Assembly: GCA_963749155.1 (NCBI GenBank)
Contig: CAVVLO010000002.1
Span: 512,001-576,000 of the forward strand
DNA: 64,000 nucleotides
Origin: an uncultured Armatimonadia bacterium
GTDB taxonomy: Bacteria; Armatimonadota; Zipacnadia; CAVVLO01
Direction: 5' to 3'
Shown: piece by piece, positions 4,301-25,743 of the stretch
Numbering within the stretch: position 1 is the stretch's first letter
Layout: each line of letters begins with the position of its first letter
The notes under the pieces: generated by a model
Databases searched by the model: none
Told to the model about the DNA's origin: nothing
Seen by the model: only the letters and a program-made list of their open reading frames with translations
Position numbers and translations under genes: made by a program

Positions 4301-5402
4301 ATGGCACTGAAAGTTGGGATAGTTGGGATGGGTGGCATCGGCAATCAGCATGCCGATTGCCATATGGCGGACGAGTTGTCCGAGCTCGTAGCGGTCTGCG
4401 ATGTGCAGAAAGACCGCGCCGACGCCGCAGCCGCGCGGGTAGGCGTTAAAGCCTATTACAGCCTGGCCGATATGCTGGCCAACGAAGAACTGGACGTCGT
4501 AGACGTGACCACCGGCGGTTACGAGAACGGCAGCTGGCACTTCGAGCCCACGATGGAGGCCCTGGCCGCCGGCAAGCAATGTGCTGTGCGAGAAGCCGCT
4601 GTCGAACGACATCGGCGAGGCTCGCGAGATGGTGCGGTTCGCCGCCGAGAAGAAGCTCTACCTCGGCTGCAACCTCAACCACTACTTCACCCCGACCGCC
4701 GCGCGCGCCAAGAAGTACATGGACGACGGCCTGATCGGCGAGGCGGTCTATCTGCTCTTCAAGATGGGCTTCGATGGCGGCGAGGAGACTTACGGGTTCA
4801 ACAACTCGCCGCGCTTCAACCAGCCCTACGCCACATGAAGGCCTTCCTGACGCATCCCTTCAGCGTGATGCGTTACCTCTGCGGCGACATCACCCATGTC
4901 CAGGCCTTCCCGACAAGCCCGGCTGTCCGCAAGAGCAAGGGCGACCTGCTGCTTTCCATCAACAGCGTCCACTGCAAGTTCGCCAGCGGCACAGTCGGCT
5001 ATCTGCTTAGCCAGCGCGGCGACGCGATGTGGGGTCTGGGCGGCTGGTGGAGCTGCGAAGTCGGCGGCAGCAAGGGCTCTTTCTGCATCGAGAACTGCAT
5101 CGAGAAGCTGACCTACTGGCCGGGCACCAAGCCCGGGCAGAAGACGGCCGCAGGAGCCGGAGAGTCCTCGATACTGGCATCAAGGACTTCGGCGCAGACC
5201 TTCCCCAGCCGGATCCACGCCTTCCTCGAGGACGTAACGGCCGGAGTGCATCCACGAGCACCTGCGCGCCAGCGGCCGGGATGCGCTCGCGACGCTGGAA
5301 TACATTTTCGCGGTCATCGAGTCTTATGAACTCGGAGGCCAGCTTGTGCGGCCGCATCCACTGCCGAATCTGCACGGCGATCCCGCTGTAGAACGTATCT
5401 AA
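4301..5402 (+). CDS. Gfo/Idh/MocA family oxidoreductase A; several frameshifts
   Basis: KVGIVGMGGIG Rossmann motif; VLCEKP in the next frame (~4580); C-terminus ...LPNLHGDPAVERI* at 5400-5402; AAGGAG RBS. Confidence 0.85.
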
Positions 5403-5432
5403 GTATCAGGCGACAAAGAAGGCGCATAACTA

Positions 5433-6439
5433 ATGGCATTAAGAGTGGCAGTCGTGGGGCTTGGCCCCATTGGCAACCTGCACTCCCGGATTTACAAAAG
5501 TGACAGCCTGGCCGAGTTGGTGGGGGTTTGCGACCGCATCCCCGAACGCGCTGACTCGGCCGCCGAGGCCTACGGGTTCCGGCTTTTACCGACGCCGAGA
5601 CGATGCTGACCGAGTTGAAGCCCGACGTCGTCAGCGTGGCGACCGGTGGCTTCGAGTATTCAAGCGACCACTATGAGCCGACCTTGCAGGCTTTTGCCGC
5701 CGGGGCACATGTCCTGTGCGAGAAGCCCATCTGCAACGACCTGGCGAAGGCCGCCGAGATGGTCGAAGCGGGCCGCAAGGCGGGCAAGTGTTTCGGCCTG
5801 GACTTCAACCATCGCTTCACACCCGCGGCCTATGCGGCGCACAAATGGGTGGAAGACGGCCTCCTCGGAGACCTGCTCTTCTGCAACATGGCGCTCTGGA
5901 TCGGCAAATTTGGCGAGTTCGAGACAGTCAACTATCACCTGAAGGCCCTCAATCCCCATTCGGTCAATATGATGATGTGGTATTGCGGGCCTATCGAGGC
6001 CGTGCAGTGCTTCGCCACCAAGGCGCCAGGTCGCAATATCTGGTCGTCGGCCTCTATCAACGTCCAGTTCAGCTCGGGCGTGGTCGGGCACCTGACCAGC
6101 AGCTATGACATCGCCCGCTCGCACGGGGTTGAGCGCTGCGAAGTCGCTGGCACAAAAGCGCGACTCATCGTAGACGATATGTGGAAGCAGTCGACCCTCT
6201 TCCCGGCAGGTTCGATGGAACAGCTTTCCTATGTGAATCCCGTCTTCGGCGGAGTGCGTGATTTCGATGATACCTTCCGCGAGCGTTTGCACTGTTTTCT
6301 CGCGCAGATCGCGAACGGCGCAAAACCTGAGGAAGTAGACGGCTCGGGCGCCGATGGGCTGGCAGCGCAGCGCGTAATCCACGCCGCCATTACCTCACTG
6401 GACGAAGGCAACCGCCTCGTCCGCGTTGCGGAAATCTGA
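5433..6439 (+). CDS. Gfo/Idh/MocA family oxidoreductase B; frameshift near 5575
   Basis: ATG 5433 gives MALRVAVVGLGPIGNLH, which joins the 5603-6439 ORF carrying HVLCEKP and FNHRF. Confidence 0.85.
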
Positions 6440-7956: not shown

Positions 7957-9033
7957 TCAGGAATAGAGCCAGTCGAGGCCAATGCGCCTGATGCAGGCAT
8001 CCTGAAGCACTGCGCTATCGCGTCCACCACAGCAGTAAGCAAGCAGCACAGCCTCTTCAACGAAGTGGAGAGCCGTATAACAGAAGCCGCGCTCCGGGTC
8101 GTCCTCCAGCAGCTTTGCCTGGCCCCAGGTGCGCCCGTCATCCTGGCTGATTGCAGCAGCAAGCGGGGTGCGCTGCCAACTGGAAGGCTGGCGATCCATC
8201 GGATACGAGAGATCGTTCCATACTGCCAGCAGGTCGCCTGTCGAGGGGATACGCTTCACGCTCATAGGGGAGCAAGGAGCGGCAAAACGCGAGGGCAATG
8301 GGGCTGTCCAGGTATCACCGCCATCCTCGGAGAACAACTCGTATTGGAAACCTGCCTCGGTGCGACACCAGGCCCAGAGCCTGCCCTCTTTAAGTTCCAC
8401 TACGCCAGGCTCCTGCAGGCCAGAGGGGGTCTGACCTGGGAAGGCCCACCAGTCCTGCCCCTCGCGCCAGGTCCACCCGCCATCATCGGACAGGAAGAAG
8501 ACCGCGATACTGCGGAAATCCAGCGAATCATACAATCTGTCAGGATCGTTCACCAGTTTGGCGCGCAGTCGGTGATAGCCCGCCGGGGCGATTAGGCGAC
8601 CACTGGAAAGCTGCACCACTCGGTCATTATTTACTACGAAGTAGCCAGGCGTTGGCGTCGCCAAAATCGGCTTGCCCCAGGTCTTGCCCTCATCTCCCGA
8701 GACGCGCAGTCTCAGCCTGCAATCCAAAAGGCCGTTCTTGCGCAGATAGAAGAGCCCCAGTTTGCCATCAGACAGGCGCTCTAGAGAGACGCTCATCACG
8801 TTGCGACGCCCCTCGCCAGTTACAAGCACTCGGGGGCGACTGGACCAGGTGCGTCCGCCATCGTTGGACTCGATAGCGGCGATCTCGGCGCGCGCCTCAT
8901 CGGCCCAACTGTCCCCTGTGTAGCGCGACCAGGCGAACAGCAGGCGCCCGTCCGCAAGCGTTGCGAAGGCGCCCTCGGAGTTGCGCGGGTTGCCCTTACC
9001 GTGCGAGAGGTCCTTGACGATGTGGTTCTCCAT
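7957..9033 (-). CDS. BNR/Asp-box sialidase-family beta-propeller protein
   Basis: Five Asp-boxes (SNDGGRTW, SGDEGKTW, SDDGGWTW, SEDGGDTW, SQDDGRTW); RNSEG, LQEPGVVEL, RTPL. No signal peptide. Confidence 0.85.
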   Translation of the reverse strand: MENHIVKDLSHGKGNPRNSEGAFATLADGRLLFAWSRYTGDSWADEARAEIAAIESNDGGRTWSSRPRVLVTGEGRRNVMSVSLERLSDGKLGLFYLRKNGLLDCRLRLRVSGDEGKTWGKPILATPTPGYFVVNNDRVVQLSSGRLIAPAGYHRLRAKLVNDPDRLYDSLDFRSIAVFFLSDDGGWTWREGQDWWAFPGQTPSGLQEPGVVELKEGRLWAWCRTEAGFQYELFSEDGGDTWTAPLPSRFAAPCSPMSVKRIPSTGDLLAVWNDLSYPMDRQPSSWQRTPLAAAISQDDGRTWGQAKLLEDDPERGFCYTALHFVEEAVLLAYCCGGRDSAVLQDACIRRIGLDWLYS

Positions 9034-9045
9034 TGTTGCTACCCC

Positions 9046-12000
9046 CTACTCCGGATAGATTACCGCCAGGATGAACTGGTTCTGCCCCGTCACAGTCAGC
9101 ACCGACCTGGCCAGGAGGCGATTGTCCTGGCGCTCTGGAAGCACCCAAAGGCCCGTCCAGTCGCCGCCCTCTTCGCAGGTGAAAGCCCCTTGCTCTGCCT
9201 CCAGGTTGAACTGCACATACCCGTTGTCCAGCATCGCTTGCCGGCCAGGCAGCGGCGCCTCGCCGAAGTCACTGGGATCGACTTCGCTTGCCATCCAGGA
9301 GCAGCTTCGCCTTCGTATAGTCCACGAACCCGCCGGTGTGCATCCGCACGCCCAGCAGGCGGACTGACTTCAGCCCTGCCAGCGCCTGCGCGTCGGGCGC
9401 AGCCAACTCGGCGCCATATTCGATGCGGACTGGCACCTCATCGCGCACCAGCGCGGTGCGGGAGAGCTTCCAGCCAGGCGCCGGCTCGAAGCTCCACTCC
9501 AGCAGCACCCCCTCGGGCGTATGCCTGACCGAGACCAGCGTTGGAGCCGTAGTCGCCTCAAAGGTCCAATCAGGCCCTTCAATCTGGTCGGTTGCTGTGG
9601 TCAAGGTCTCGAACAGGTCGGGATGGTCGCCTGTATAGGCCCAGTTGACGTCCACCCCGTGGTTTACGCGAAACTGCGCCAGGATGACTGGCCCGCGCAT
9701 CACCATTACACAGCGCGCCGGCTGCTCAGGCCCACCATCGAGGCTGACCTGGCCCTCGGGCAGCGTGTCCCAGGCGTTGTCCAGCACCACCCGCAGGGGC
9801 AAGAGGAAGTCTGCCTCCACCCCATCGCCATGTTGCCAGCGGCGTTCCACCGTTGCATAACCATCGGCCTGGCTTACCGCCACCGGCTTGCCGTTTACCT
9901 TCGCGCTGACGAGGCCCGCCCAACTGGGCAACCGCAGCTTGACCGCGAACTCGCCGGCCTTCTCCGGGTCAATTCTCAGCTTCACCTGACCACTGGCGCG
10001 GCAGGTTGGCCTCGAGGCTGGCTTTCACCTGTTGCCCCGCGATGGGCAGAGTGACGCTGCTTGGCAGATAGTCGTTCACGTAGAGAGCCGTGGGGGAGGA
10101 CGCCCAGATATGCCTGGCTACTTCGTACAGTCCCTTGGTACCCCACCAGCCGCAGCAGAACCACCCATCGCCCCCGCGAACGGGCCCGGGCAGGCGATCC
10201 ATCGCGGTGAAGTTGCCATAATGATATTGGCTGTAGCGCAGGGCGTTCCAGTAGATATGCTCGGCCCGGTCGAAGAAACGTCCCTCGAGCGTGTTCTCGG
10301 CAAGCAGCAGCGACAGCATAAGCTCATCGGCGGTCTGGCAGGTCTCATCATGGGGGTCGGGCGTTCCCCCCGGGAAGGCTGTGCCGCGCCAGGGGATCTG
10401 CTCCAGCACGGCGCCGAAGCCCCAGGTGGCGCGATCCCAGACCCGGTCGCAGGCGGCGATGGCATCGTCGAGATAGCTCTTGTCGCCTGTTGCGGCGGCA
10501 AGCCAGACGAAGCCTCTGACCGTCGAGAGGTTAGCGTGGATATGCCAGCCCTCGTACTGCTGGCGCTCGGGGGGCAGGTCGCCATGGATCATCCAGGCCA
10601 CCCCGCCCCACTCGCGATTCAACTCGGCGATCTGTTTGGCTCTTTCAAGGAAGCGCGGCTCCTTGGTGCGCCACCAGAGCCACACCATCGCCTCGAGCGA
10701 ACCCTTACCCAGGTGGCCCACCGTTGCGCCTTCGCGGGAGAACTCTGCCCTCTCGCTGAAGTAGTTAGCCGCCCCCAGGTCGCCGTTGTCGAGGTAATAT
10801 TGATACCAGTCGGCGATGCCCTTGGCCGTCTCCAGCGCCTGCTCATCGCCGGTCAGGTCGTAGTATTCCATCAGCCCTGTGAAGACGGTCGATTGCCCCC
10901 AGATGAAGCCTGTGCGCACGGGGTCGCCGCCTACGAGAGAGCCGGGATACTTGCTCGTGAACTCCTGTTGGGCCCCCAGTGCATCTGCGGTCACTTTAAG
11001 GTCGAGGGCCACCTTCATCAGGCGGGAGAGCTTGCTGTAGGTGTCCAAATCGCGCCCGGCGGTCTCGTAGCCGCAGTCGGGCAGATGCCCGGCAACCAGT
11101 TGCTGGTCGCGCCCGTTGAAGGCCCACCTGTCCATATGGGTGCGGATACGCCCCTCCAGCTCGCCCTTGAGGGTCAGCTCCCAGGGGTCGGGTGGCTGAG
11201 GCCAGTCTCCAGCGTCAGCAAGCCTGACTGGCCTGGGTGGCAGAGCCGGTCGGGTAGATTCGGGCAAAGGCGGATAACCGATATGCCCCTTTCCATACTG
11301 CTCGTGTCCAGCCCCTACCCAGTAGAGGGGCGCCACGTCGTAGTCATCCCCCTGACGAACCAGGCGCGCGGGGTCGGCACTTGCGGCGTCTTCGGCACGG
11401 AAGACCCACACCTGATTGATCAGCGCGGTGTTATCGAAAAGTATGTTGGTATCGCTCGCCACGACCTCGAGCCAGCCGTCGCGGTTGAGGTCCTCGCGCC
11501 TGGTAGACACGCACGAAGGGGCGTTTGGGTCCCTGTGCATCGGTGGATTCGACCGCCACGTCGAAGTGATCCACAATCCGGCCATCGAGCACGACCTTCT
11601 GGACGCGCTTGCCAGGCTCAGTGTCGGCGTCATAGAAGCCAATTGCCACTGCGAACTTGCCGCCCCTGGGCACCGCAAAGTGGTAGCCGGCAGCCGCTCC
11701 TCCCCACCAGCCCATCATCGCCCAGGCGAAGCCGCTATCATAGCCCTCCGGCGGAGGCGCGCCGCGGGTGGGACTGCCTGTGCCGCGCGTATAGAAGTAG
11801 GTCCAGCCGTCCGGCCTGGCCAGCACCGGCGCCCGCTCGGCCTTCTCTCGCTGCGCAGCCGTGATCGGCTGGCCTGCCTTCACAAAATAGGGGGCCGGCT
11901 GGCTTGCGAGGTCGGGCACAGGCTGGGCCGACCCGATGAGGAACTCACTTGGCTTCAGCACCTGAGGTGTGAAACGGAATTCGTCCATATCGCCCGTGAA

Positions 12001-12642
12001 AGGTAGTTCTCCACCTGGATATGACCCGATAAAGAGATCGGTGTCGCTGGTCTGACCGAGGGCATCCCACACCGCTGAGGCGCGCAGATTGCCGTTAACA
12101 TAGGCCTTCACGCGCATCTTGCCCTCGCCGATAGCCTCATACGTCGCCGCGAGATGATACCAGACACCCGGCAGCGGCCCGCCGCTGGCCTGATCGAAAA
12201 GATAGATGAAAGGCCCGCCGTAGATGTTCGCCTGCACCGTGCCGTCGCGTTGGTAGATGAAATGCCAGTTGCCCGCGCCAGGCTTGCCCTTTGAGGCGAG
12301 GATCTGGCCCGGTGACCCCGCGAACCGCGCCCAGAACTCGACCGTGAAGTGTTCGTGCTCGCTCAGCTCGGGGGTAGAGGCGACCTGCAGCCAGCCCTTG
12401 CCGCCGAAGTGGAGGGCCGAATGGTTGGGCGCCTGATTCAGCGGCAGCAGCGCAAGGGGCACTTCCTCGATGAAAGTCGGTGGTTCTCCGTTCGCGACGG
12501 CGACTGGGACCCCGGCTTCCCCTGGGGTAGCTATGACCTGCTGGCCAGCGCTGCCCCCCTCGAACCGCCACCAGGCGGCAAAGCTCTGCGAAGCCAGCAA
12601 TATCAACAGGCCAAATACGGCCAAAATCAAGCGCAGGTCCAT
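9046..12642 (-). CDS. Secreted multidomain protein: LamG, malectin-like domain, GH127-like (beta-L-arabinofuranosidase family) catalytic and C-terminal domains; frameshifts near 11490, 9990, 9290
   Basis: GGAGG RBS then signal peptide MDLRLILAVFGLLILLASQSFA. LamG motifs FTVEFW, WYHLAATY, FTGDMDEFR. GH127 Zn/Cys motifs HDETC and WFCC; LRLPSWA...VNGK...ERRWQHGD middle domain. Four ORF-track pieces abut in order. Confidence 0.75.
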
Positions 12643-12661
12643 CGGAACCTCCCTGGTCTTT

Positions 12662-14080
12662 TCAAACGAAATCTGGATAACGCTGGGCAAGCGCGGTCAG
12701 CAACTGTTCGAAGCCTTGCGCGCGCGCGCTCAAGACCAGTTCCCGGAAGAAGGTCTCAGGAGGCAAGCTTGCGTCAGGCGCCTCACCTATACGCCACAGC
12801 TCTGCAGCCTGACGCATCGCGGCCGCGCCAACTCTCGGGTCGGCTTTCCCGTCAGGCCCCTTGATTGAGTTGATCGCCGAGCCTGCCAGGAACAACACAG
12901 GATTGCCTGCCAGGTGGCTTGCGACGTCCTCCAGATTATGGATGATGTTGCCCTGGTCCAGCCCGCCCGCGCGCGTCACCATCACAGGTTTGATGCCCTT
13001 GATTGGCCGCGTCAGCACCTCTTCCGACTTGCGCCACTCGAGTCCCTGAGGCCGCAGCAGCGGGTGACCAAGAGCCAGGGGCGCCGTCTGGCGGAAATCG
13101 ATGCCATCCAGCCGGGCCAGCAGGTCCAGCACCTCGCGCCAGATAGCCAGTGTGCGCGCGTCTATGCCGCCGTTGTGGCCGTAGATGACGGGGGGCTCGG
13201 GCAGGTGTTTCGTGTGGTCGCGCACCAGGCGAGTGGCCCCGCCTAAATATTGCTCCGAGAACATAACGCCCGTCGCGCCCGCTTCGAGCACCTCGTCCAG
13301 CACCGCAAGCAGCCTGTCCGGTGGCGCGGTGATGTGGGGGCAGAAGAGCAAACCGCGCCCCTCGCGCTCGGGCAGTGCCCTCTCGACGGCCTGTGCCGCA
13401 AGCCTCGCCCGCTGGCCTGCTGGGCTGTATGGCAGGTCGGGGAAGAGATTCTCGTCCTCCTTTACAAAGAGGAAAAGTGACTGCTGAGCAGCTGCCTCTA
13501 CAAGATCGGCAACCTCCTCTGGCGTGATGCCCGCTGTCGGCTTGAGGATAGTGCCAAAAGCAGGCTCTCCCGCCGGCCAGTTGGTGCGCTGAACTACACC
13601 ATGACAGCCATAGGCCGGCCCTGGGAAGCCCTCTATCACCGACTGCGGCAGGTTGAGGTCCAGCAGTTTTGCCTCCGCGAAATCCCAAAGCGCGAGGATG
13701 CCTGCTCCTGCCGCAATATGCAGCAGGTCGGTCGAATAATAAGTCCCATCGGCCCGCTCGAACTGCTTCACTGGGAAAGCTACCCGTACCAGCCCTACCT
13801 TGTGCTGGGTGTCCCAGGCGCGCACGCCGGCGACCCAGCCAGTGCACTGGGCGACCAGCGAGCCGGGCTCGGGGTGCTTGGTGGCAGAGGTCATATGGTA
13901 CGAGATGGCCTCTCCCGCCTCGGTCAGATTGCCATATCGGGCGCGGATGAAATAAGTTGCCACGATGGCGGTCTCATCTTCCGGCACGTTGGCCCAAAAA
14001 TCCGCCTCATCGTATACGCGCCGGCGCAGCTCCGCCTCGCGCTTGTCCAAATCAAGCTCAAATAGCTCCATATCATCCAT
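12662..14080 (-). CDS. RuBisCO-like protein (form IV, RLP)
   Basis: RuBisCO large-subunit landmarks FPGPAYG, GTILKP, FVKEDENL (KDDE equivalent), YGHNGG and AGG; several carboxylase residues are replaced. Confidence 0.85.
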   Translation of the reverse strand: MDDMELFELDLDKREAELRRRVYDEADFWANVPEDETAIVATYFIRARYGNLTEAGEAISYHMTSATKHPEPGSLVAQCTGWVAGVRAWDTQHKVGLVRVAFPVKQFERADGTYYSTDLLHIAAGAGILALWDFAEAKLLDLNLPQSVIEGFPGPAYGCHGVVQRTNWPAGEPAFGTILKPTAGITPEEVADLVEAAAQQSLFLFVKEDENLFPDLPYSPAGQRARLAAQAVERALPEREGRGLLFCPHITAPPDRLLAVLDEVLEAGATGVMFSEQYLGGATRLVRDHTKHLPEPPVIYGHNGGIDARTLAIWREVLDLLARLDGIDFRQTAPLALGHPLLRPQGLEWRKSEEVLTRPIKGIKPVMVTRAGGLDQGNIIHNLEDVASHLAGNPVLFLAGSAINSIKGPDGKADPRVGAAAMRQAAELWRIGEAPDASLPPETFFRELVLSARAQGFEQLLTALAQRYPDFV

Positions 14081-14104
14081 CTCGTAACCTCTTCCCCTCT
14101 ACGT

Positions 14105-14896
14105 TCAGGCTAACAGCAGATCGATTCCAAGCTCGTCCAGCACCACTTTTGCCTCTGGTGAAGGTGCAGCATCAGAGATCAGCACATCAACATCGGAAAG
14201 CGGGATGGTCCCATGCAGTGAGGACTTGTCAAATTTACCTGCATCGGCTACCAGCAGCACCTGCTCGGCACAGGCGATGGCAGCGCGTTTCATTGGCACT
14301 TCTTCCGCTGCGGACAGCGTCAGCGCCCTGCCCTGGAAATCAATTCCGGCGGTACCCAGTACCAGCTTGCGGCAGCGGAAACCGCGGATGGCCTCCTCCG
14401 CCTGATAACCCACCATCGAGTGAGTGTGTCGCAGGTACTGGCCTCCAATGAGGAACAGATTGATGCCAAGCGAACTCTTGAGCGCCTCGACTACTTCAAG
14501 AGAGTGCGTGACTACTGAGAGATGCCGCCGGTTGGCAATCTCCCTGGCGACCATCAGGGCGGTAGTGCCAGCGTCCAGATAGACGGTATCGCCTTCGTAG
14601 AGGAGCCTGGCCACTCTGCGGGCGATGCGTTGTTTGACCTCAAGGTGGTAGTTCATACGCAAGCTGAAGTCCAGCTCGGCGCCGACGGGCGCCTGGCGGG
14701 GATACGCGCCTCCGTGAGAGCGACGCAAAAGTCCTGCTCGCTCGAGCCTATCCAGGTCGCGCCTGATGGTGACCAGATTCACCTTCAGTTCTTCGCTCAG
14801 CTTTGACACATCTACGTAACCATCTGCCAGTAATAACTCGCAGATGCGATCGCGTCTTCTGATGCCACCTAGACCCCGGTTGCTCACTTGACTCAC
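14105..14896 (-). CDS. DeoR/GlpR family transcriptional regulator
   Basis: HTH VNLVTIRRDLDRLERAGLLRRSHGGA; sensor domain YLDAGTT, VVTHS, LVADAGKF. The start may be GTG 14887. Confidence 0.92.
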   Translation of the reverse strand: MSQVSNRGLGGIRRRDRICELLLADGYVDVSKLSEELKVNLVTIRRDLDRLERAGLLRRSHGGAYPRQAPVGAELDFSLRMNYHLEVKQRIARRVARLLYEGDTVYLDAGTTALMVAREIANRRHLSVVTHSLEVVEALKSSLGINLFLIGGQYLRHTHSMVGYQAEEAIRGFRCRKLVLGTAGIDFQGRALTLSAAEEVPMKRAAIACAEQVLLVADAGKFDKSSLHGTIPLSDVDVLISDAAPSPEAKVVLDELGIDLLLA

Positions 14897-14900
14897 CCGC

Positions 14901-14940
14901 GCACGAATTTCGCACCAATCGTGCAGGAATCCTGCACGAA
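14901..14940. promoter_or_regulatory. Candidate DeoR operator: four heptamers at 11-bp spacing containing a perfect palindrome
   Basis: GCACGAA (14901), GCACCAA (14912), GCAGGAA (14923), GCACGAA (14934); inverted repeat TCGTGCAGGA-A-TCCTGCACGA at 14919-14939. Confidence 0.7.
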
Positions 14941-14944
14941 CGAT

Positions 14945-14973
14945 AGTATATTCTGCTCGTTATCTTCTCTCAA
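14945..14973 (-). promoter_or_regulatory. Putative sigma70 promoter of the deoR-RLP operon
   Basis: Minus strand TTGAGA (14973-14968), 17-nt spacer, TATACT (14950-14945). The predicted start (~14938) falls inside the operator. Confidence 0.6.
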
Positions 14974-15010
14974 GCGGCAAGGCTACAAATTGACGGTGAA
15001 GGTGAGCAGG

Positions 15011-18000
15011 ATGCAACCAGGAGCACTTGTGCTTGTTCTGATTATGTTGTTGATGATTGCTGGTCTGGCTCGAAGTTCAGGGCAGGCGCCGATCCAGGAG
15101 GGCCTGGTGTTGTATCTTGATGCGGCATCTCAGGTCGCAAAAGGTGGGCCAGGCGCTGACAATTCTCTTTGGACAAATCTGGCTACCGGCAATCCAGGCG
15201 CCCTGGGCGATGCTGTGCTGAGGCGCGCAGGGGAAGGCCCAAAGGCCGGTTGGATAGGCACTGGCACAAGCTGGAATCCCTATGCCCTCAGGTTCGATGC
15301 GGCCACCCTCTGGGCAGAGGGCACTGGCGACTATACGGTCTTCCCAAATGTGACCCTCGAGGCCTGGGCCTTTGTCGAGGGAGCGGGCAACAACCTGAAA
15401 GCCGGCGCGCGCAACTGGCGCGGAGCGACTCTGGTCACCAGTGATTTTGGCCAGGGCGGGCTGGGATTGCTCATCTCACCCGAACGAAGCCAACCGGTGC
15501 TGCTCGGAGGCCGTCAGCATGTGCCGTCCGCGGTTTCGACGCCACTAAGGACCTGGCTCCATATCGTGCTTGCAATGACTGGAGATGAGGGGCGCCTGTA
15601 TGTGAACGGCGAACCCCAAGGCAGCGTTAATCTGCCGCGTTCGGCCTATAACGACCCTGCGCCGGGCTATCTGCTGGGCTGCGCGCGTCAGGCGAAGAAC
15701 GAGTATGTAGAGGCCGACGGGCTGGAGGGCGCCCTCGCCGTGGTGCGCGTCTACGACAGAGCACTGTCAGGCAAAGAAATCGCCCAGTGTTTTGCGGCCG
15801 AGTGCGCCCAGTTTGGAGTGGAGGCCGCCTCTGAAAAGCCGCCTGTCCTTGCCTCTCGACTGCCTTCCTTGCCAGGCCTTGCGCCCGCTGCGCCGGCTCG
15901 CGCGGTAAAGTGGGATTACTATGCGGAGCCACCTGCCGTAAGCGGCACCTGCCATACCCGACTACCCCGGCATCGCCCGTAACGCGCGCCAGGCTTTCGA
16001 TGGCTATCCTCAGCGGCTGGATCAGGCAGCTTCGAGCACCCACTGGGAGGCCGACCTCACCAAGGGCCCGGCTGTCGCGACCATCAACTACAAGCGGCAG
16101 GTGGCGATAACGCGCTTCGTGCATATCCCGATGTATCATCGCTGCTTTCGAGACGTGGATATCGAAACCAGTGAGGACGGCGAGACCTGGCGCCTCTTGC
16201 AACGCTTCGAGGGTCTTTCCCTCGAGCCCGCTCAGGTGCTGGGCATCGACAAGCCCGTCCTCTCGCGCTTCTACCGGCTGGTCGTGAAGGCGCTGACCAG
16301 TGGCACCCAGTTGATGACCCAAGAGATCGAGACCTGGTACGGCGCAACCCTCGGCAACGTGACCTCCATCGCGCCGCTTGTGCAGTCGGAAGCCGGCCAT
16401 ATCCAGGTGCGCATTGCAAGTAATGATGCGCCACTGGAAGGCGCCCGGGTGCGCCTCATCGCGCCAGCCGGGACACTGGAAGGCCCACTGGAAACTGCTC
16501 TCCCCTCCCTCAAAGCCGGCGGTATCGCAGTCGCAAACTTCGCGCTGACGCCGCTTGCCTGTGGCCCAGTAGCGCTGCAGGTTCAGTTATTGGCCGGTGA
16601 GGCAGTGATTGATGAGGAACCAGCCACCTTGCAGGTTGCGTCCAAGCTTGCCCTCTCTGGTGCGGACCTCTCCTGTGTTGTGGCTGAAGCCGGGCAGCAG
16701 GTGAAGCTCGCTGGCACGGTAACCAACGCAGGCACGACGCCTGCCCTCGTGGCGAAGGTAAAATGGCTCGGTAAGACCGCGAAACTCGGAGACTTGCCGC
16801 CTGGCGCGACGACTGACTTCTCACTGACTGCGACGGCAAAACCTGGCTTCGAGGCGGGGACCCTGGTCCTCAGAGCCGAAGGCCAGACGGAGACTGTTCT
16901 GTGCAAGCCGGTCCTCTGTGCGAAGGAAGCCAGCTTTGCCTTGATTACACCCACTGTCACCTCGGATTGGAAGCTTGCCGAGGGAGCAGTCCGTTTCGAG
17001 CTCTGGCGCGACGATGACACTCACGTCAACGGTTCTCTGCGATTGCTGACCGGCGGCCAGCAAGTGCCTCTGGTGCCCGTCGGGAAGGTCGACGGCGCGC
17101 CCGCGCTTGCGGCGCCGGTGCCCGGAGCGACGCTCTTGCTGCGCCTGGTCACCTCAGGCTACGACGTCTGCTGGCAAGCCCAACTCTTCCCAAGCGATCC
17201 TAATCCGACGACTCCGCCCATTTCTGACTTTGAACTACGCCTCTCCGTCGATAAACCGAAAGTGATGTTCCGTCCGCATATAGACTGGTACACCGTCGAG
17301 GAAGGCCCCAACTATCCGGCCCTTAGCAATGGGCACAACAGCGCCACCCGGATGCTGGCCGTCGAGACCGATTCGGGCACGTTATCTCTTGTGCCCGACA
17401 CCGACAATATGACCTGGGGCTTCTCCCCGGAAAACGAGCTGACCATCGCCTTCCACACGCCCCTGACCCCGCCCGATGCGCTGGGACGAGACCTCTGGGG
17501 GCCAATTGAGGAAAGCCCTCTGGCCTTCCTATTGCGCCTGCCACTCACTGCCGGCGACTGGTGGGAAGCCTATCGGTACGTAGTGAAGGATGTTTTCGCC
17601 TTCGAGCAACCGAGGCAGTGGGCGCTGCCTGTTACCCAGATGCAACTGCTGACGACGCGTTATTCGATGCGGCCAGAGGTGTGGAGCGAGAAGTACCGGA
17701 TGGTGCGCTCGCACCCAGGGATAGACTTCTTCTACAACTTCTACGGAGTCACCTACAACATCCCGGCTCTCTACGGCTGGTATCTGGTGACCGATGACTC
17801 TTCGGCGAAAGCTCTGGCGGAGCGCGAAGTCGAGTGGTTGCTAGAGTTGCAGGAGCAGGAAGGCCCCCTCGCCGGAGCCTGGTTCTCGATGTACTGCGTC
17901 GACCCGACTACCCCTAGCGGCCTCATCGGCCTCGACCAGGCCTGGAATCGCTGGTGCCTGCCGCATGCGACCGGCACGACGGTCAAGACATTGTTGTGGT

Positions 18001-19190
18001 ACTGGGAAGCCAGCGGCAAGCGCAACAGCGAGGTGTTCGCCGCCGCCGTGCGAGGGGCAGAATGGCTGCTTGCGACCCAGCGGCCGGATGGCGCGTGGAC
18101 GTATGCCTTCGACCTCGAAGGCAAGCCTGTCTCAGAGCAAAGCGGCGCGGGGCAAATTTGGTGCACCTGGGCGCTGTGGAAACTATGGGAATACACCGGC
18201 GAGGAGCGCTACAAGCTGGCTGCCCAGCGCAGCCGCGACGCCTTCAAGCGCGACTTTATGGACCAGCATCGCTATATGGGCTACTGGGAGGACGTCTCAG
18301 GCGCTGGGGGTAGTGTCGCGCGCAGTTGGGAGGCTTACGAGCCTGCCATCGCTTGCCTGGTGTTCGCCGAGATGGGCGATAACGACCTGGCGCTCTGGTG
18401 CGCCAAGGATGCCGCCACCTGGAGCTGGACTCGCGTCACCACTACGCGCCAGCCTGAGACCTCCCTCGGGGAGACTACCGAGCAGTCGCTGTGCGGGCCC
18501 TCTCAGGCGCAAAGCCCGATGACCGCGGTGGGGATGCAGCGTCTCTTCGAGCTGACCGGCGATCCGATCTGGCAGGATTTCGCCGGTGCGATGAAGGCAG
18601 TTAACTTCTCTGCCGATCCCGACCAGGCGTATGGGATGGTCGCCACCAGCGGTTGGGGCGACCCGCTGCACGGGGTTGCCAGTCCGCCCTACGAAAATTA
18701 CAAGCCCTTCATCACACCCAACAACAGTCTGGGCGATGAATACGGCCGGCAGGTATGGAACAACTGGTGCACCGACCAGTTCGCCTGGCTTGCGCTCGAA
18801 TGGCTGGTGCGAGAGGGTAATCTCCGCGCCCCGAATCACTTCTCACTGGACATCAATACCTACCGTGGGACGGTGCTTGGGCAGCCCGGACGCGTCCGGA
18901 TGCCCGAGGAGAAGTGCGATGTGACGCCGATCGACCACCTGGACATCAACTGGGTGGGGTACGAGAACGCCGATCATTACGTCCTGCTGGTGATTAACCA
19001 CAAGGAGCAGGTCACGGTGGCTGTCCGCCCGCATGAGGCGCATCTAGGTTGTTATTCGCGCCCGCCTCAAGTGGCAATCGGAGCAGGCCAGGAGTGGCAA
19101 GCAACCCCGACCGACCAGCGAGGGTTGCAGTATTTTGTGACTATCCCTATCGGACAGAACGCCTTGTTCGTGTGGGACAAAATCAAGTAG
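15011..19190 (+). CDS. Large secreted protein A: LamG, discoidin/F5-8-like, Ig/CARDB-like and helical (alpha/alpha)-barrel-like domains; frameshift region ~15950-16100
   Basis: Signal peptide MQPGALVLVLIMLLMIAGLARS; GLVLYLDAA...VRVYDRALS (LamG); ETSEDGETW (discoidin-like); WLLATQRPDGAW and LWEYTGEERY helical repeats. Collinear with paralogue B. Confidence 0.7.
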
Positions 19191-19203
19191 AGGAGAGCGA
19201 CTT

Positions 19204-19548
19204 ATGCAGATCGTCGAAAAGCCGTGGGGACGCGAGGTGTGGATCGCCCACACCGATAAATACGCCCTGAAAGAGATCACTGTGAACGAGGGGCATCGGT
19301 CCAGCCTGCAATATCACGTGAAGAAACACGAACACATCTACATCCTCAAGGGCAAGCTGCAAGTCGAGTGGGAGAACGAGGCCGGCGAGATGGAAATTCT
19401 GGTGCTGGGTCCCGGCGAGGTCATCGAGAACAAGCCTGGCCGCAAGCATCGCGTGACCGCGCTCGAGACAACAACAATGATAGAAGCCTCAACGCCCGAG
19501 CTGGATGACGTTGTCCGCGTGGCTGACGATTACCAGCGGGAGAACTAG
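19204..19548 (+). CDS. Cupin-domain protein (mannose-6-phosphate-isomerase-like)
   Basis: EKPWGRE, SSLQYHVKKHEHIYIL, HRVTA, EASTPELDDVVRVADDYQR; GAGGAG RBS. Confidence 0.85.
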   Translation: MQIVEKPWGREVWIAHTDKYALKEITVNEGHRSSLQYHVKKHEHIYILKGKLQVEWENEAGEMEILVLGPGEVIENKPGRKHRVTALETTTMIEASTPELDDVVRVADDYQREN

Positions 19549-19550
19549 CG

Positions 19551-20715
19551 ATGGGCGCCAAAGTGGTGTTGTTCGGCGCTGGCGCGACGGGTCGAGGTCA
19601 TGTTGGCCTGCTGGCCTGGCAGGCCGGCTGTGAGCTGGTTTTCGTCGAGCGCGACCCCGAGCTGGTGCGGCTGCTCTCCGAGACCGGCCGGTATGTGGTG
19701 CATTACACTGGGCGCAACGCCGTGCCGGACATCGAAGTGACCGGCTTCCGCGTGCTGCAAAGCGACCAGCGGCAACCCATCGCCGAGGAGATCGCAAGCG
19801 CCGATTTGGTGCTGACTTCTGTCATCGAGAAGAACCTGCCTGACGTCGCTCTGACCATCGCGCTGGCGGTGAAGATGTGCCGCCAGGCTGGACGCACCCA
19901 GCCGCTCAACTGCGTGGCCTGCGAGAATATGCCGGACAGCTCCTCCCAGCTTGGCGGCCACGTGCGCGCGCTGCTTGAAGAGGGGGACCTTGATTACTCT
20001 GAGCGCGTGTTCGCCTTCCCCGATTGTATGATCAGTCGGGTGGTGCCGAAGCCCGAACCAGACCCGCTGTTCATCACGACGGAGAACTACAACGAGTGGA
20101 CTGTCCGGGCCGAAGTTTTCAAAGGTCAAAAGCCTGAAGGCCTCGACGCAATGGAGCTGGTCACCAACCAGACCGCCCGTCTGGAGCGCAAGCTCTTCAT
20201 CCACAACGGAGGGCATGCCATCTGCGGCTATCTGGGCTGGCACCGAGGGCATCGCTATATCCACGAGGCAGTCGCGGATCCGGTCGTGCTGGCGGGGGTC
20301 GTCGGCGCACTGAACGAACTCGGCGACGTCATCCTGCGCAAGTGGCCTGAGTTTTCGCGCGAGGAGATTGATGCTTACAAAGCGGAACTGGGTGAGCGCG
20401 GCGCCAACCCAGCGATGAAGGATCCCGTAGCGCGCGTTGTGCGCGATCCGCTACGCAAGCTTGCGCCAGGCGACCGGTCTGCTTGGCCCGACGGCTCTGG
20501 CGGCGGAATACGGCTTGCCTCACGCCTACCTGGCCCAGGGCATCGCGGCGGTGCTACGGTACTTCTCCCCCGAGGATGAGCAGTCGGTCCGGCTGCGCGC
20601 CCTGCTTGCCGAGAAGCCACTTCCCACCGTGCTGGAAGAGGTCTGCGGCGTGCCATCGGAAAGCCCCCTCTCGGCTGAGATCGCGGCAGCCTATGAGGCC
20701 TTCAATCTGACCTAG
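19551..20715 (+). CDS. mtlD: Mannitol-1-phosphate 5-dehydrogenase-like (long-chain polyol dehydrogenase); frameshift near 20480
   Basis: FGAGATGRG, VACEN, DCMISRVVP, ERKLFIHNGGHA, DPVARVVRDPLRKL match the MtlD family. The substrate is not established. Confidence 0.75.
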
Positions 20716-20735
20716 CTGTGCCTGGAGTGGAAATA

Positions 20736-23700
20736 ATGGAAACCTGGCAGCCTCTGTTCTTTCTTGTTTGCCTGCTCGCACTGACCGCTGGCCTGGGATG
20801 GCCAGCCCCTGCCTCGGAAGGCCTGATTCTGCATCTCGACGCCGCCGCGCAGGTGGCAGCAGGGGGCCTTGGCCCGGAGAACAATGTCTGGACCAACCTG
20901 GCCGGCCAACCCGACTCGGTGGCGGGCTCGGTGCGACTACGGCATTTCGGAGAGAGCGTCCAATACGGCTGGGTTGGCGATGGCTCCCCTACCGCACCCT
21001 ATGCGCTGCGCTTCGATGGCAAGCAAACCTATGGCCAGGGGCCAGGCAATCTGGAGCTGCCCGAGCTTACCCTCGAAGCCTGGGCCAAGGTCGAGGGCCA
21101 CACCCTGCGGGCCGCGACGCTCATCGGTAACGACTTCGGGAAGGGGGGTATCTCGCTTCAAGTCGCCTCAGCCGCCGAGACAATCCAACTGCTACACGGA
21201 GTGACCTTTGCCCCGGTGGACGCCGAGGTCAGCCGGGGCGACTGGCATCAGGTGGTCGCCGTCATCAGTATGGACCAGGCGCTGTTCTATGTAGACGGCG
21301 CCTTTGCCTGCGCTCTGCCGCTTGACCAGAGAGCTCCAACCCGATCACCTCCCCGCCTTCGAGCTGGGCGGCGCGCACTTCCCGGAGCAGGATTATGCCG
21401 CCGCTGACGGCCTTATCGGCGAACTTGGGCTGGTGCGCGTCTACAATCGGTTGCTCTCACCCACTGAAGTAAAAGCTAACTTCGAGGCCGACCAGGCGCG
21501 GTTCGCCATCAGGTCACTGACCGAGCTTGGACCAGTTAGCTCGATGCCGATTCCCCAGGTACCTGGCGTCGCTACGGCACCTGTGCGATGCCTGAAGTGG
21601 GACTACTACTACAACCCGGTGCGCGTAGTCTCGAACGCAACCAATGCGCAGTGGGCCTTCAACGGCTATCCGGCCAAGGTGACCCATCCGGTCGAATTCA
21701 CCACCTGCACGGCGCCTGCGCCCACGTCCGACAAACCGGTCGAGCTGACCATCAACTATCGCAGGCCGGTCGCGCTAACGAAGTTCGTCCATTACTTCGA
21801 GGGCTGGCGTAACTGGGGCGCCTGGCGAGAGGTTGAAGTCTACACCAGTCCCGACCGGCTGGACTGGCAGCTACTTGAGAGCTTCACAGACCTGCCGCCG
21901 GACTTCCCCCAGGTGCTGGCCTTCGACCAGCCGCGCCTTGCCCAGTATTATAAGGTGGTAGTCAAGGCTCTCGCGCCCTCAACGCCTGGCTTCAACACAC
22001 AGGAACTGGAGGCCTGGTATGGGGCCTCGGTCACAACGGTCGAAGCAGGCCAACCCGTGCAGTCGGAGTCCTTCCGGCTGCGTGTGCGTCTCGCCAGCCC
22101 CGACGCGTCGCTGTCCGGCGCCACCATCAAGCTGATCGCGCCTGACGGCGCTCTCTCGGGCGCGCTGGAAGCGCCTGTGCCGACAATCGAGCCCGGCTCC
22201 TCGGCGCTCGCAAGCTTGACTGTCACGCCGCTCACCCAGGGCGAAGTGCCCCTCCGGCTGGAACTGTGGGCCGGTGGCTTCCTCATCGACCAGCGCCCCT
22301 ATACACTGCGGGTCGCGCCCAAACTGGTCTTCTCCTCAGTTACCCCCACAGGTGGTAGCCTGGTCGAAACTGGCTCTCAGGTGAAACTGACCGGCCAACT
22401 CACAAACGCTGGGGCGACCGCCGCCGAGGACGTCGAGGTGACCTGGCAGGGCAAGCGCATCGCGGCTTGGAACACTTGCCCCTGACGCTTCGGCAGACTT
22501 CGAGCTGAATCGCAACCGCCAAAGCGGGTTATACCGAAGGTGGATTGGTCGCCAAGAGCGCCGATGGCGCGACCACAACACTGCGCAGAGCGGTAATTGC
22601 CGCCAAAACCGATACTGTCGCGGTGCAGTGTCCCTCTGCCGACTGGCGTTGGAGCAATTCTGACAGAAGGACTTGCCTTCTCGGCGAGGCTGCAGGGGGC
22701 AGAGCCGCTTACCGGTGAACTGAGACTGCTCGTAGCCGGCGCACCGGTGGCGCTGACACCGGTGGGTGCTTCGCAGCTTGCGGCTCTGGTGCCGGGCGCA
22801 GTGCTGCTCCTATCTGCCCAGCCGGCGAGAGACGGGCGACCTGGCTCTCGACTGCCGCTTGATTCCCGATGACCCCACCCCCCTCGTGAGGCCCTGGGCA
22901 GTCTTTGACTTCCAGCTTGGCCTTGCCGATACGCAAGTCTGCTTCCGCCCCCACATCGACTGGTATACCGTCGAACACGGGCCAAACTTCAAACCTACAC
23001 TCAGCGCTGGCAACAGCCCGACCCGGATGCTGTGCCTGGCGACCGACGATGCGACGCTCTCGCTGGTGCCGGACTGCGACAACACTTACTGGGGCTTCAC
23101 CCCTGACAACAGGATGACGGCGAACTTCCAGGTGCCGCTCGGTCCACGCGATGCGCTGAACACTGGCCTCTGGCGTCCTGTGCTGGAGGCGCCAGACCAC
23201 TTCCGCCTGACACTGGCAGCGCGTCCGGGTGATTGGTGGGAGGCCTACCGGCACATCGTCGCCGACCTCTTCCAGTTTGAGCAGCCCAGGCAGTGGGCGA
23301 TGCCAATTAGCCAGATGCAACAACTGACTATCAAAGAACTGATGAGCGCCCAGGCCTGGAGCGAGCGCTGGCAAAACACGAAGGTGCTCTCGAGCGACGA
23401 CCTTTTCTGGCCCTTCTACAGCACCGCTTATGCCCTGCCGGCGCTCTATTCGTGGTACCTGGCGACCGATGACACTATCGCCCTGGACAAGTCGCACAAG
23501 GTGGTCGACTGGCTCCTCGCCGTCGAGCAGCAGGACGGCCCGATGGCAGGCGGGTGGAATACCAGCTATTGGGCTGAAGGCGATCCTCCCAGACTCGTCG
23601 GAGGTGACTTCATCCGCAACCGCTGGTTCATCCCTCATGGTACGGGCGCGGTCGTGAAGACCTTGATGTGGTACTGGAAAGCCAGTGGCGGGCAGGATGG

Positions 23701-24868
23701 TCGGGTGCTCGCGGCCGCAAGGCGAGGCGGAGAATGGTTATTGCGAACGATGAAGCCTGATGGCGGCTGGCCGTATGCCTTCGACAGCGAAGGCAACCGT
23801 ATCACCGACCAGTGCGGCGCCGGGCAGATCTGGTGTACCTGGGCCCTGTGGGAGCTATATCAGGCCACAGGCGATGAACGCTACCGCGATGCGGCGCTGA
23901 AGTCGAAAGACTACTTCCGCGACCGGTTTATGGCTGTCCACAGGTATGTCGGCTACTGGGAAGACACGGTCGGCATCAGCAAGCAACAGACCGAGAGCAT
24001 CGGCAGTTGGGAAGGCTATGAGCCGGCACTTGCCATCCTGGCCTTCTCCGAGATGGGCGATGAACAACTAGCCCTTGCCGCGGCCGAGGATGCCGCCGTC
24101 CACTCCTGGACGCGTGTCCCAAGCACGCGCACCTACGAGACTTCATATGGTCAGACGACCGAACAGGCCACCTGCGGGCCTTCTCAAGCCCAGTCGCCGC
24201 TGGTGGGAGTGGCCTTCCACGAAGCCTATATGCTGACCGGCGACCCGCTCTGGCACGCGCTTTCGGGCGCCGTGAAAGCCGTGAACTTCTGCGCCGACCC
24301 GGAGCAAAACTGGGGTATGGTCGCAACCAGCGGGTGGAATATCCCACTTGCAGGAGTCACTGGTCCGCCGTATGAGAACGTCCGCCCGAGCGTCACTCCC
24401 GATATGCAACGGGGCGACTACGGCCGCCAGCTCTGGACGGGCTGGTGTACCGACCAGTTCGCCTGGCTTGCTCTCGAATGGCTGGTCCGGGAGGCCAACA
24501 GCCGCGCGCCGGAGTATCTCTCCCTCGACCCAGTCACCTTCCGGGGCACCGTACTCGGGGCTCCGGGGCGAGTCAAATTGCCCGAATCGAAGTGTGACAT
24601 CACGAGTTTCGAGCACTACGACATCAACTGGGTCGGTTATCAGAACGACCTGCAATACGCGCTGTTGGTGATGAACCATAAAGAAGCCGTCCGCATCGCC
24701 GTGCGCCCACAGGAAGCCCATCTGGACGTCTACACCAAGCCGCCGAAGCTGCTGATTTCCGACCAGGGCAAATGGCGCGAAGTCGAGGCGCATAAGGACG
24801 GCATCCAGTATATCGTCGAAGTGCCCGCCGAAGGCAACGCGCTGTTCATCTGGGATCGTATCAAATAA
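20736..24868 (+). CDS. Large secreted protein B (paralogue of 15011-19190); frameshifts near 21330, 22460-22600, 22820
   Basis: Signal peptide; GLILHLDAA; shares FRPHIDWYTVE, GAGQIWCTWALW, CGPSQAQSP and WCTDQFAWLALEWLVRE with A; C-terminus NALFIWDRIK versus NALFVWDKIK. Confidence 0.7.
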
Positions 24869-24902
24869 CGGGCTCCGGCCCGAGTGCCAAGGAGGCACGA
24901 AG

Positions 24903-25743
24903 ATGAAGCTCGGATTCACGACTTATGGCAATCTGGCAATGCTAGACTTCGCAAAGCAGGAGGGCTTCGGCTGCCTGGAGTTCACCAGCCTGCCTGGCTA
25001 CCCCAATATGGATCTGGTCGCCGACCTGGCCGATCCGGGCGCGCTGGCCGACTTCAAGGGGCAGATTAGCGCCTCGGGCCTGGAGGTGCAGTCCATCATC
25101 ACCGCCGTCAACCCGATGGCCGTCGACGAGCACAAGACCTGGCTCGCTGGGCTGATCCAAGTCGCGGGCAAGCTGGGCATCCGTTATGTCTCGACTACCT
25201 CCGGTCAGAATCCGGCCCTCTCCCTCGACGATAATGTGAAGCTTTTCGGGCAGGTCTATCGCGAATTGGTCAAACTGGCCGACGACTCAGGCGTTGGTAT
25301 TGTGTTCGAGAACTGCCTGCACGGGTATCCGGCTCGGCCAAAACATCGCAGTCAACCCCGAGACTTGGGAGAAAGTCTTCAACGAGGTCGACTCGCCCAC
25401 CCTTGGCCTCGAGTTCGACCCTTCGCATCTGATGTTCCAGTTCATCGACCCGGTGGCAGCCGCCAGAGAGTTCGCAAGTCGTATCTACATCCTGCACGCG
25501 AAGGACACTGAGATACTCGAAGAAGAGCTTGCCTGGGGAGGCCTTTACTCGCTGAAGGGTTATTGGCGCTTCCGGCTGCCCGGTTACGGAGAGTGCGATT
25601 GGGCGGGGCTATTCCAGGTGCTGCGCGAGGCCAGCTTCGAGGGCAATGTGATCATCGAGCACGAGGATCCGGTCTTCCACGGGGAACTCTATGAGCAAGG
25701 GCTGCGCATCGGCAAACGTTTCCTGGAGCCCTTTGTCTGGTAG
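24903..25743 (+). CDS. Sugar phosphate isomerase/epimerase (TIM barrel); frameshift near 25335
   Basis: AAGGAGG RBS; IVFENC, LGLEFDPSHL, HAKD, FRLPGYG, VIIEHED. Confidence 0.85.

Follow-up and report, generated by a model that had tools for sequence, protein, structure and literature searches.

To our knowledge, few reactions have been assigned to RuBisCO-like proteins (RLPs): those of methionine and methylthioadenosine (MTA) salvage, and those of apionate and tetronate-type acid-sugar catabolism. The biochemistry of OiaX and OiaC, the RLPs of D-apionate catabolism, was reportedly described by Carter et al. in 2018. In the Ashwell route, hexuronates are processed by the uronate isomerase UxaC, the mannitol-dehydrogenase-family reductases UxuB and UxaB, the PfkB kinase KdgK and an aldolase. 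An RLP gene can also stand next to that of a small cupin: in Rhodospirillum rubrum and Rhodopseudomonas palustris, according to PMC5893883, the DeepYkr RLP (5-methylthioribulose-1-phosphate 1,3-isomerase) adjoins the gene of a cupin methylsulfurylase. Here we analyse a divergent locus built around an RLP gene, at positions 7957 to 25743 of a 64,000-nucleotide stretch of DNA (the window) from an uncultured Armatimonadia bacterium.

We consider it likely, short of firm confidence, that this is a repressor-controlled locus whose core, an uncharacterized RLP with a cupin of the phosphomannose-isomerase (PMI) type and an MtlD-type dehydrogenase, acts on a phosphorylated sugar. The RLP probably catalyses a step of sugar-phosphate breakdown that has yet to be described. 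In the locus it is partnered by a DeoR-family repressor, the cupin and the MtlD-like enzyme; a uronate-isomerase-like protein and an aldolase, whose genes lie on another contig, complete the set.

The RLP is far below the cut-offs for characterized families

The RLP (12662..14080, minus strand; 472 aa) falls in the RuBisCO large-subunit superfamily by a weak match to PF00016, at 40.8 bits for a cut-off of 30.1. Its AlphaFold model (pLDDT 83, pTM 0.85) has the complete large-subunit fold. Foldseek aligns the model to known structures with whole-chain TM-scores of 0.67-0.74 (E ~1e-24, 17-25% identity), a range that is alike for type III RuBisCOs and for RLPs of the Photo, NonPhoto and MtnW types. 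The nearest solved structure is 4nas by sequence (5.9e-15) and 8dht by profile (7.1e-25).

The protein is far from the cut-off of every family model that describes a characterized relative. It scores 76.8 bits against 497 for form III RuBisCO and 50.2 against 489 for form II in NCBIfam. The MtnW/YkrW enolases (2,3-diketo-5-methylthiopentyl-1-phosphate enolase) share with it the RuBisCO fold, the carbamate-Mg2+ triad and the K175-type base for enolization; however, the window RLP reaches only 46.6 bits against 409 with NF007095 and 20.8 against 513.6 with TIGR03332, and it is another RLP of the same genome, on contig C1, that is MtnW-like. The first-pass annotation of this DNA, made from the letters alone, had staked its reading on a distance from the MtnW enolases, and that distance is large. 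Like OiaX and OiaC, RLPs of the clade are encoded in catabolic clusters for sugars or acid sugars that also comprise dehydrogenase, isomerase, hydrolase and kinase genes. In contrast to them, the window RLP obtains 60.4 bits against 700 with the OiaX model NF042437, it is 24.6-26.1% identical to three OiaX-annotated plasmid genes (H24, H30 and H35), and the kinase found near its relatives is a PfkB; among the recurrent neighbours given to Pfam, no four-carbon acid-sugar kinase was seen. Plasmids gave 297 matching records, none of which covers 80% of the RLP, and the listed matches are at most 32.6% identical. Fused forms were looked for among longer proteins (827-2360 aa), with none at E <= 1e-20, which is weak evidence against them.

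More than 100 columns are invariant among 27 sequences of the clade. They include K180, K207, D209, E210, H302, N303, I306 and Q331, and there is little or no variation in the motifs GTILKPTAG, KEDEN, YGHN, RQT and AGGLDQGN. In a profile alignment to type III RuBisCO, the conserved residues fall on the KPK, KDDE, HRA and H327 motifs (in what we take to be spinach RuBisCO numbering, used for the RuBisCO residues throughout). The equivalents of K175, K201, D203, E204 and H294 are retained, as K180, K207, D209, E210 and H302. Four other positions are replaced: K177 by T182, R295 by N303, H298 by I306 and H327 by Q331, and the loop-6 lysine, K334, is aligned to a gap. The full catalytic set of RuBisCO forms I-III is therefore absent. 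The lost residues are those for the second phosphate and for CO2, and the RLP should be unable to carboxylate ribulose bisphosphate. The pattern points to metal-assisted enolization and not to carboxylation; because the equivalents of R295 and H327 are lost, it also suggests a substrate with a single phosphate.

The clade is large, present in at least eight phyla and reaches the cut-off of no model for a known RLP type. A word-based search gave 1585 proteins at E <= 1e-5 to the RLP among 8000 scored candidates. Record titles place the clade in Acidobacteriota, Planctomycetota, Verrucomicrobiota, Chloroflexota, Armatimonadota, Poribacteria, Hydrogenedentota, Actinomycetota and Bacteroidota. One protein is 91% identical to the window RLP and all others are at 63% or less; no relative between 63 and 91% was found in the protein search, in genome contigs or in metagenome contigs. 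A library clustered at 50% identity holds 40 representatives at E <= 1e-30, of which five are full-length, at 40-51% identity; with so few, the clade appears compact. The open literature that we searched, including the accessible parts of PMC13454268, PMC7325909 and PMC5893883, holds no description of it (subscription papers were outside this scope).

Conserved partners of the RLP clade

We compared the surroundings of 160 related RLP loci, 80 from genomes and 80 from metagenomes. Neighbours were identified by tblastn, the queries being the window proteins and one or more members of each neighbour cluster that recurred (E <= 1e-10, coverage >= 0.4); two clusters, cl7 and cl8, proved to be antisense open reading frames (ORFs) of the GFO and RLP genes and were dropped. 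The most frequent neighbours are GFO/IDH/MocA oxidoreductases (73/160), TIM barrels of the xylose-isomerase-like (XI-like) kind (49/160), alpha/beta hydrolases (43/160), a 447-aa uronate-isomerase-like protein (39/160), RPE-like epimerases (36/160) and PfkB kinases (29/160). The MtlD-like enzyme is found at 22 loci, the cupin at 19 (median 69% identity), DeoR at 13, a dehydrogenase E1 alpha subunit also at 13, SIS isomerases at 12, and class II and DeoC-type aldolases at 8 and 5, respectively. The sugar-catabolic neighbourhood proposed in the first-pass annotation is thus kept among relatives for DeoR, the cupin and the MtlD-like enzyme; its glycoside hydrolase, of family GH127, occurs at none of the 160 loci.

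These neighbours form three recurrent contexts. In context A, a single operon encodes the RLP, GFO, XI-like TIM, hydrolase, RPE-like, PfkB and uronate-isomerase-like proteins. Context B consists of the uronate-isomerase-like protein, class II aldolase, DeoR, RLP, SIS, E1 alpha, E1 beta and E2. Context C combines the RLP with the cupin and the MtlD-like enzyme, at times along with an MFS transporter, an IolE-like TIM barrel, a DeoC-type aldolase, PfkB or the uronate-isomerase-like protein. All three share the RLP and the uronate-isomerase-like protein, which gives a concrete partner set for a substrate search. The 447-aa protein itself matches the amidohydrolase 4i6v (1.5e-24) and the uronate isomerase BH0493 (5.7e-9).

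At L186:8001-13211 (genome G018) and at loci L003-L008, genes for a SIS isomerase and for pyruvate-dehydrogenase-like E1 alpha, E1 beta and E2 subunits come after the RLP gene, both in this clade and in a sister group at ~31% identity. Such an order may mean that the product of the RLP is cleaved in a thiamine-dependent reaction.

A quick maximum-likelihood tree was computed for 160 rows: 158 of the loci, the window RLP and the second RLP of the genome; two loci were left out on account of stops or short matches. The window RLP, on a long end branch (1.04), has as its sister group 11 rows from Acidobacteriota, which show context B and have DeoR directly upstream (SH-aLRT 99). Together they nest in a 22-row clade (support 100) that also holds nine rows of context C. 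On this tree context C requires at least five changes, and it lies in at least five separate places.

The genome has no kin closer than the class, and we compared 41 genomes of that rank. Five of them have the RLP or a relative with 34% identity: besides the window's genome, it occurs at 53% identity in G017, 52% in G030 and 34% in G006 and G018. The uronate-isomerase-like protein (E <= 1e-40) occurs in exactly the same five genomes and in no others of the set; the cupin (E <= 1e-20) is found in four of the five, the window's genome included. Between cupin and RLP genes the distance is 93-140 nt in G006, G017 and G030, and ~5 kb, across the divergent region, in the window. In G030 a single run, transcribed away from the RLP gene, encodes the cupin, the MtlD-like enzyme, a class II aldolase and the uronate-isomerase-like protein. 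The RLP-like gene of G006 is in a row with the cupin and the MtlD-like gene, and that of G018 with SIS, E1 alpha, E1 beta and E2; both contexts therefore hold for a sister group at ~31-34% identity.

In the window, the small cupin (19204..19548, plus strand) is of the type II PMI kind, with 35 bits to PF01050 and 37.9 bits to the C-terminal model positions 357-467 of TIGR01479. It is followed by the MtlD-like oxidoreductase (19551..~20715, plus), a member of the mannitol-1-phosphate 5-dehydrogenase family in the wide sense (PF01232 105.4 bits, PF08125 75.9 bits). Its best NCBIfam model, NF002646, gives 220 bits for a cut-off of 368, so the enzyme is not placed among MtlD equivalogs. The uronate-isomerase-like protein of this genome is encoded on contig C5 (G000:C5:245782-248186; L090:7780-10186) and is 55% identical to the cluster representative. 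Next to its gene is that of a DeoC/LacD-type aldolase, whose best NCBIfam matches, to ADH synthase and class I FBA models, are under the cut-offs.

This set of partners resembles two described systems in part. As in DeepYkr, a non-carboxylating RLP is paired with a small cupin gene, and the DeepYkr RLP enolizes a mono-phosphorylated ketose. An adjacent cupin is seen in the clade at 19/160 loci and in three class genomes, whereas that of the window is ~5 kb away on the other arm. The companions differ, however: here they are the MtlD-like dehydrogenase, aldolases and the uronate-isomerase-like protein instead of MTA-salvage genes, and the cupin is PMI-like. Our comparison with DeepYkr is one of gene context; the PDB tables contain no solved structure labelled as a DeepYkr RLP. 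With the Ashwell route, the clade shares a uronate-isomerase-like amidohydrolase, a mannitol-dehydrogenase-family enzyme, a PfkB kinase and an aldolase, all recurring around the RLP. In contrast to that route, no altronate or mannonate dehydratase is found around the clade RLP, the RLP and cupin are additional, and the dehydrogenase scores as MtlD (220 bits) and not as a uronate reductase (18-21 bits).

A DeoR-family repressor and a candidate operator

The leftward run opens with the gene of a DeoR-family repressor (14105..14896, minus), which contains the helix-turn-helix domain PF08220 (51.8 bits) and the sensor domain PF00455 (153 bits). It is below the cut-off of every equivalog model; with AgaR it obtains 174.5 bits against 260. 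Orthologues at 51-56% identity stand directly upstream of the RLP at six loci (L003-L006, L095 and L097).

The two arms are separated by 114 bp (14897-15010), close to the ~115 bp given in the first-pass annotation, which also had the gene content and order of both arms right; Pfam agrees. This divergent region contains a perfect 10+1+10 palindrome at 14919..14939, a candidate operator. Its sequence is the sole exact copy in the 4.17-Mb genome, which holds no further copy within three mismatches. The palindrome lies just downstream of a sigma-70-like promoter match oriented towards deoR (14945..14973, minus; TTGAGA, 17 nt, TATACT; 10/12), whose -10 element ends six bases ahead of it. Scanning 18.3 kb for promoters of this kind found 2 sites where 2.9 are expected by chance, so that the match alone is weak. 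From gene order and sequence, we infer that the RLP of the window is under a DeoR repressor, and that DeoR may bind the palindrome.

A proposed route and the points against it

We now propose a sequence of steps for this locus. The RLP would bind one phosphorylated keto-sugar or keto-acid-sugar and enolize it on a metal, the outcome being a carbonyl or proton shift, an epimerization or a related rearrangement. Ketose phosphates would be exchanged with polyol phosphates by the MtlD-type dehydrogenase and with aldose phosphates by the cupin. On contig C5, the uronate-isomerase-like amidohydrolase could prepare the substrate and the aldolase could cleave the product. DeoR would sense a sugar phosphate, and its binding site would be the single-copy palindrome that follows the promoter-like match of the leftward run.

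The unphosphorylated substrates that the first-pass annotation had entertained are at odds with the family context, in which we find PfkB kinases (at 29/160 loci), class II and DeoC-type aldolases, the MtlD-type dehydrogenase, the PMI-type cupin and DeoR.

Several observations weigh against the reading of the RLP, cupin and MtlD-type enzyme as one sugar-phosphate core. The cupin and MtlD-like genes lie outside the RLP operon, on the other arm and behind a 4.2-kb gene of a secreted protein, and the assembly shows the MtlD-like gene with a frame break. Cupin and MtlD-like genes accompany the RLP at only about one eighth of the loci, and a seven-gene operon of another composition is more common than any other context. 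The window contains no kinase; the nearest PfkB relative (36% identity) is encoded beside the second RLP on contig C1. On the regulatory side, the promoter scan is at chance level overall, and the regions ahead of the six orthologous DeoR genes hold no perfect inverted repeat with arms of at least 8 nt. The samples have limits of their own: no more than 105 of the 160 loci extend for 5 kb to one side or the other; the genome and metagenome collections have a few records in common, with 154 distinct rows among the 160 of the tree; and the class genomes are kin, two of the five sharing a genus, so that the five-of-five co-occurrence overstates independence. The substrate and activity that we propose for the clade are predictions from sequence and gene context.

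A broader version of this proposal is more tentative, and we lean slightly against it as a whole. It holds that the clade performs a reaction new to the RuBisCO superfamily, on a mono-phosphorylated hexulose or keto-uronate supplied by the cupin, MtlD-type and uronate-isomerase-like partners; the route would be widespread, and its link to a glycan cluster would be particular to this lineage. If true, a sugar or uronate route has gone unrecognized in Acidobacteriota, Planctomycetota, Verrucomicrobiota, Chloroflexota and Armatimonadota, and in this lineage alone it is wired to a secreted, sulfatase-rich glycan-degrading cluster. The hosts are abundant and mostly uncultured soil and freshwater bacteria, for which a new reaction would fill a gap in the annotation of carbon use; it would also broaden the known chemistry of the RuBisCO fold. 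Such a reaction is more likely than either apionate catabolism or the MTA shunt.

Glycan-degrading neighbours

The RLP gene is embedded among genes for putative glycan enzymes. Downstream of it in the leftward run comes a LamG_3 and GH127-like protein (9046..12642, minus; ~1197 aa read through), which matches PF13385 (80.4 bits), PF07944 (48.5 bits, cut-off 24.9) and PF20736 (57.2 bits, cut-off 24.2) on three ORFs; the last two, on separate broken ORFs, place it in GH127. The run is closed by a BNR_2 protein of the sialidase fold (7957..9033, minus; PF13088, 106.5 bits). Of the narrow leftward gaps of about 12-24 nt described in the first-pass annotation, those between deoR and RLP (24 nt) and between RLP and GH127 (19 nt) are as described, and the one between GH127 and BNR amounts to ~12 nt only when the broken GH127 frame is read through.

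The rightward arm begins with giant A (15011..19190, plus; 1392 aa read through), a LamG_3 protein with 51.3 bits to PF13385 on its first ORF; beyond that ORF, no Pfam family was matched. Past the cupin and MtlD-like genes comes its paralogue, giant B (20736..24868, plus), the two, each of about 1390 aa, being 55% identical over 679 aa. According to Pfam, a structural model and Foldseek, giant B is composed of LamG_3, a beta-sandwich, an (alpha/alpha)6 barrel and another beta-sandwich. The model of its last 700 residues (pLDDT 78, pTM 0.84) resembles AGE-type epimerases (TM-score by target 0.53-0.66) and the GH127 enzyme HypBA1 (E ~3e-7). We found 25 homologues of the giants, all single proteins of 1227-1401 aa with labels that include Armatimonadota and Pirellulaceae. 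A large part of each giant is without a Pfam family, and they may form an undescribed carbohydrate-active family. An assignment of giant A to DUF5695 by ESM Atlas clusters scored 0.84, under the 0.9 level; Pfam does not confirm it, and we keep it as a lead only.

The arm continues with an XI-like TIM barrel (24903..25743, plus; 279 aa read through), whose two ORFs match PF01261 at profile positions 1-127 and 137-244. A close orthologue of it adjoins the RLP at 1/160 loci. The two XI-like TIM genes of the window were also considered as orthologues of the TIM barrel of cupin-type loci and rejected at 24-32% identity. A GH123-like protein (25759..28056, plus; PF13320, 74.2 bits) is a local neighbour. 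Signal-peptide-like N-termini are seen in giant A, giant B and the GH127-like and GH123-like proteins. They were sought and not seen in the RLP, cupin, MtlD-like dehydrogenase, TIM isomerase and BNR protein, the last of which begins with MENHIVKD, without a hydrophobic leader. Genes for two sulfatases, a sodium:solute symporter, a GFO oxidoreductase and a second XI-like TIM lie upstream of the locus.

The first-pass annotation took this arrangement as functional: secreted enzymes would free an unusual, possibly branched, sugar or sugar acid. In the version weighed here, the enzymes are the GH127-like, LamG and GH123 proteins, and a compound such as apiose or aceric acid is then catabolized by the RLP, dehydrogenase, cupin and isomerase without phosphorylation. 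Co-transcription of the RLP, GH127 and BNR genes is indeed likely, given gaps of 19 and ~12 nt, and the model also has in its favour four neighbours with signal peptides and, just upstream, the two sulfatases, the XI-like TIM and the GFO oxidoreductase. These junctions are also spanned by contigs from four other runs, but being 90-99% alike they represent the same lineage. We nevertheless consider this model unlikely. GH127 pieces, BNR, both LamG giants and GH123 are absent from all 160 related loci, hence the coupling is seen only in this lineage, and no relative at 63-91% identity offers a check on it. The OiaX score and the low identity to OiaX-annotated genes argue against an apionate RLP; the partners are of phosphate-sugar types, the dehydrogenase obtaining 220 bits with the MtlD model against 20.9 bits with that of tagaturonate reductase; and relatives carry PfkB kinases and aldolases. 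We see no specific sign of apionate, hamamelonate or aceric acid. As neighbours in this lineage only, the glycan enzymes may still feed the sugar-phosphate route proposed for the RLP.

Interrupted reading frames

At least seven frame breaks, which the first-pass annotation did not mention, affect five genes of the window: those of the GH127-like protein (at ~11497, 9996 and 9286; three ORF pieces), giant A (~15948; two), the MtlD-like enzyme (~20446-20489; two), giant B (~21295-21407 and 22462-22904; three) and the TIM isomerase (25335; two). In the MtlD-like gene, an intact 385-aa homologue aligns by tblastn as two pieces in two frames. We checked the frames against contigs of four other runs, 90-99% alike to the window.

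Were the breaks true mutations, the locus would be decaying and the pathway dead in this organism. Their number over 18 kb fits such a view, as does the fact that the sites are not homopolymers and that rpoB and dnaE of the same genome are unbroken; the RLP, moreover, has its long end branch. Yet at each of the five sites tested (9286, 9996, 11497, 15948 and 25335), one base of the window is absent from the contigs of at least one other run, and breaks that are all single-base insertions resemble a consensus artefact. The base at 25335 is missing from runs X1, X2 and X4; at 9996 and 15948, the X1 and X2 contigs that cover these sites do not show the deletion and match the window, in favour of decay. 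Scripted removal of the extra bases restores ORFs as long as those of intact homologues: GH127 grows stepwise from 403 to 890, 1123 and 1197 aa, giant A from 323 to 1392 aa after deletion of base 15948, and the TIM isomerase from 202 to 279 aa after deletion of base 25335. The corrected GH127 ORF stops ~12 nt short of the BNR gene. The frames of the RLP, DeoR, cupin and BNR genes are intact, and a crude count of 201 similar overlapping-frame junctions across the genome indicates that the region is not exceptional. Altogether, the breaks are probable consensus errors, and decay of the locus is quite improbable.

Several small differences separate the window from the contigs of other runs at 22462-22904, and there are nine further indels besides. 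Elsewhere in the window, at 4301-6439, 42697-45544 and 55208-59191, more pairs of same-strand ORFs overlap in different frames, one of them a split GFO/IDH/MocA gene. The assembly may contain scattered one-base indels beyond this locus.

Methylthioadenosine salvage and a second RLP

In a version of the MTA-isoprenoid shunt, the window RLP would act as a 5-methylthioribulose-1-phosphate 1,3-isomerase, with the cupin as methylsulfurylase. PMC5893883 documents these functions for adjacent RLP and cupin genes, and the genome has a MtnA over the cut-off (449 against 279 bits) next to an MTAP-like gene under it (238.7 against 274.85; G000:C2:91040-92828). For the RLP and cupin of the window these functions are very unlikely, as mtnA and the MTAP-like gene are ~420 kb from the window, the cupin is of PMI type, the MtlD-like, aldolase, isomerase-like, GFO, XI-like TIM, RPE-like and PfkB partners have no role in such a shunt, and the RLP of contig C1 is a better sulfur-salvage candidate.

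From mtnA and the MTAP-like gene, the organism is probably able to make methylthioribulose 1-phosphate. The second RLP (447 aa; G000:C1:436177-439354; L089:8177-11354) matches PF00016 with 180 bits. It is nearer to MtnW than the window RLP, with 337.5 bits against a cut-off of 409, which it does not reach. Its gene is flanked by that of a class II aldolase/epimerase-family protein and by a ribokinase-like PfkB gene, making it a candidate RLP of sulfur or deoxy-sugar salvage.

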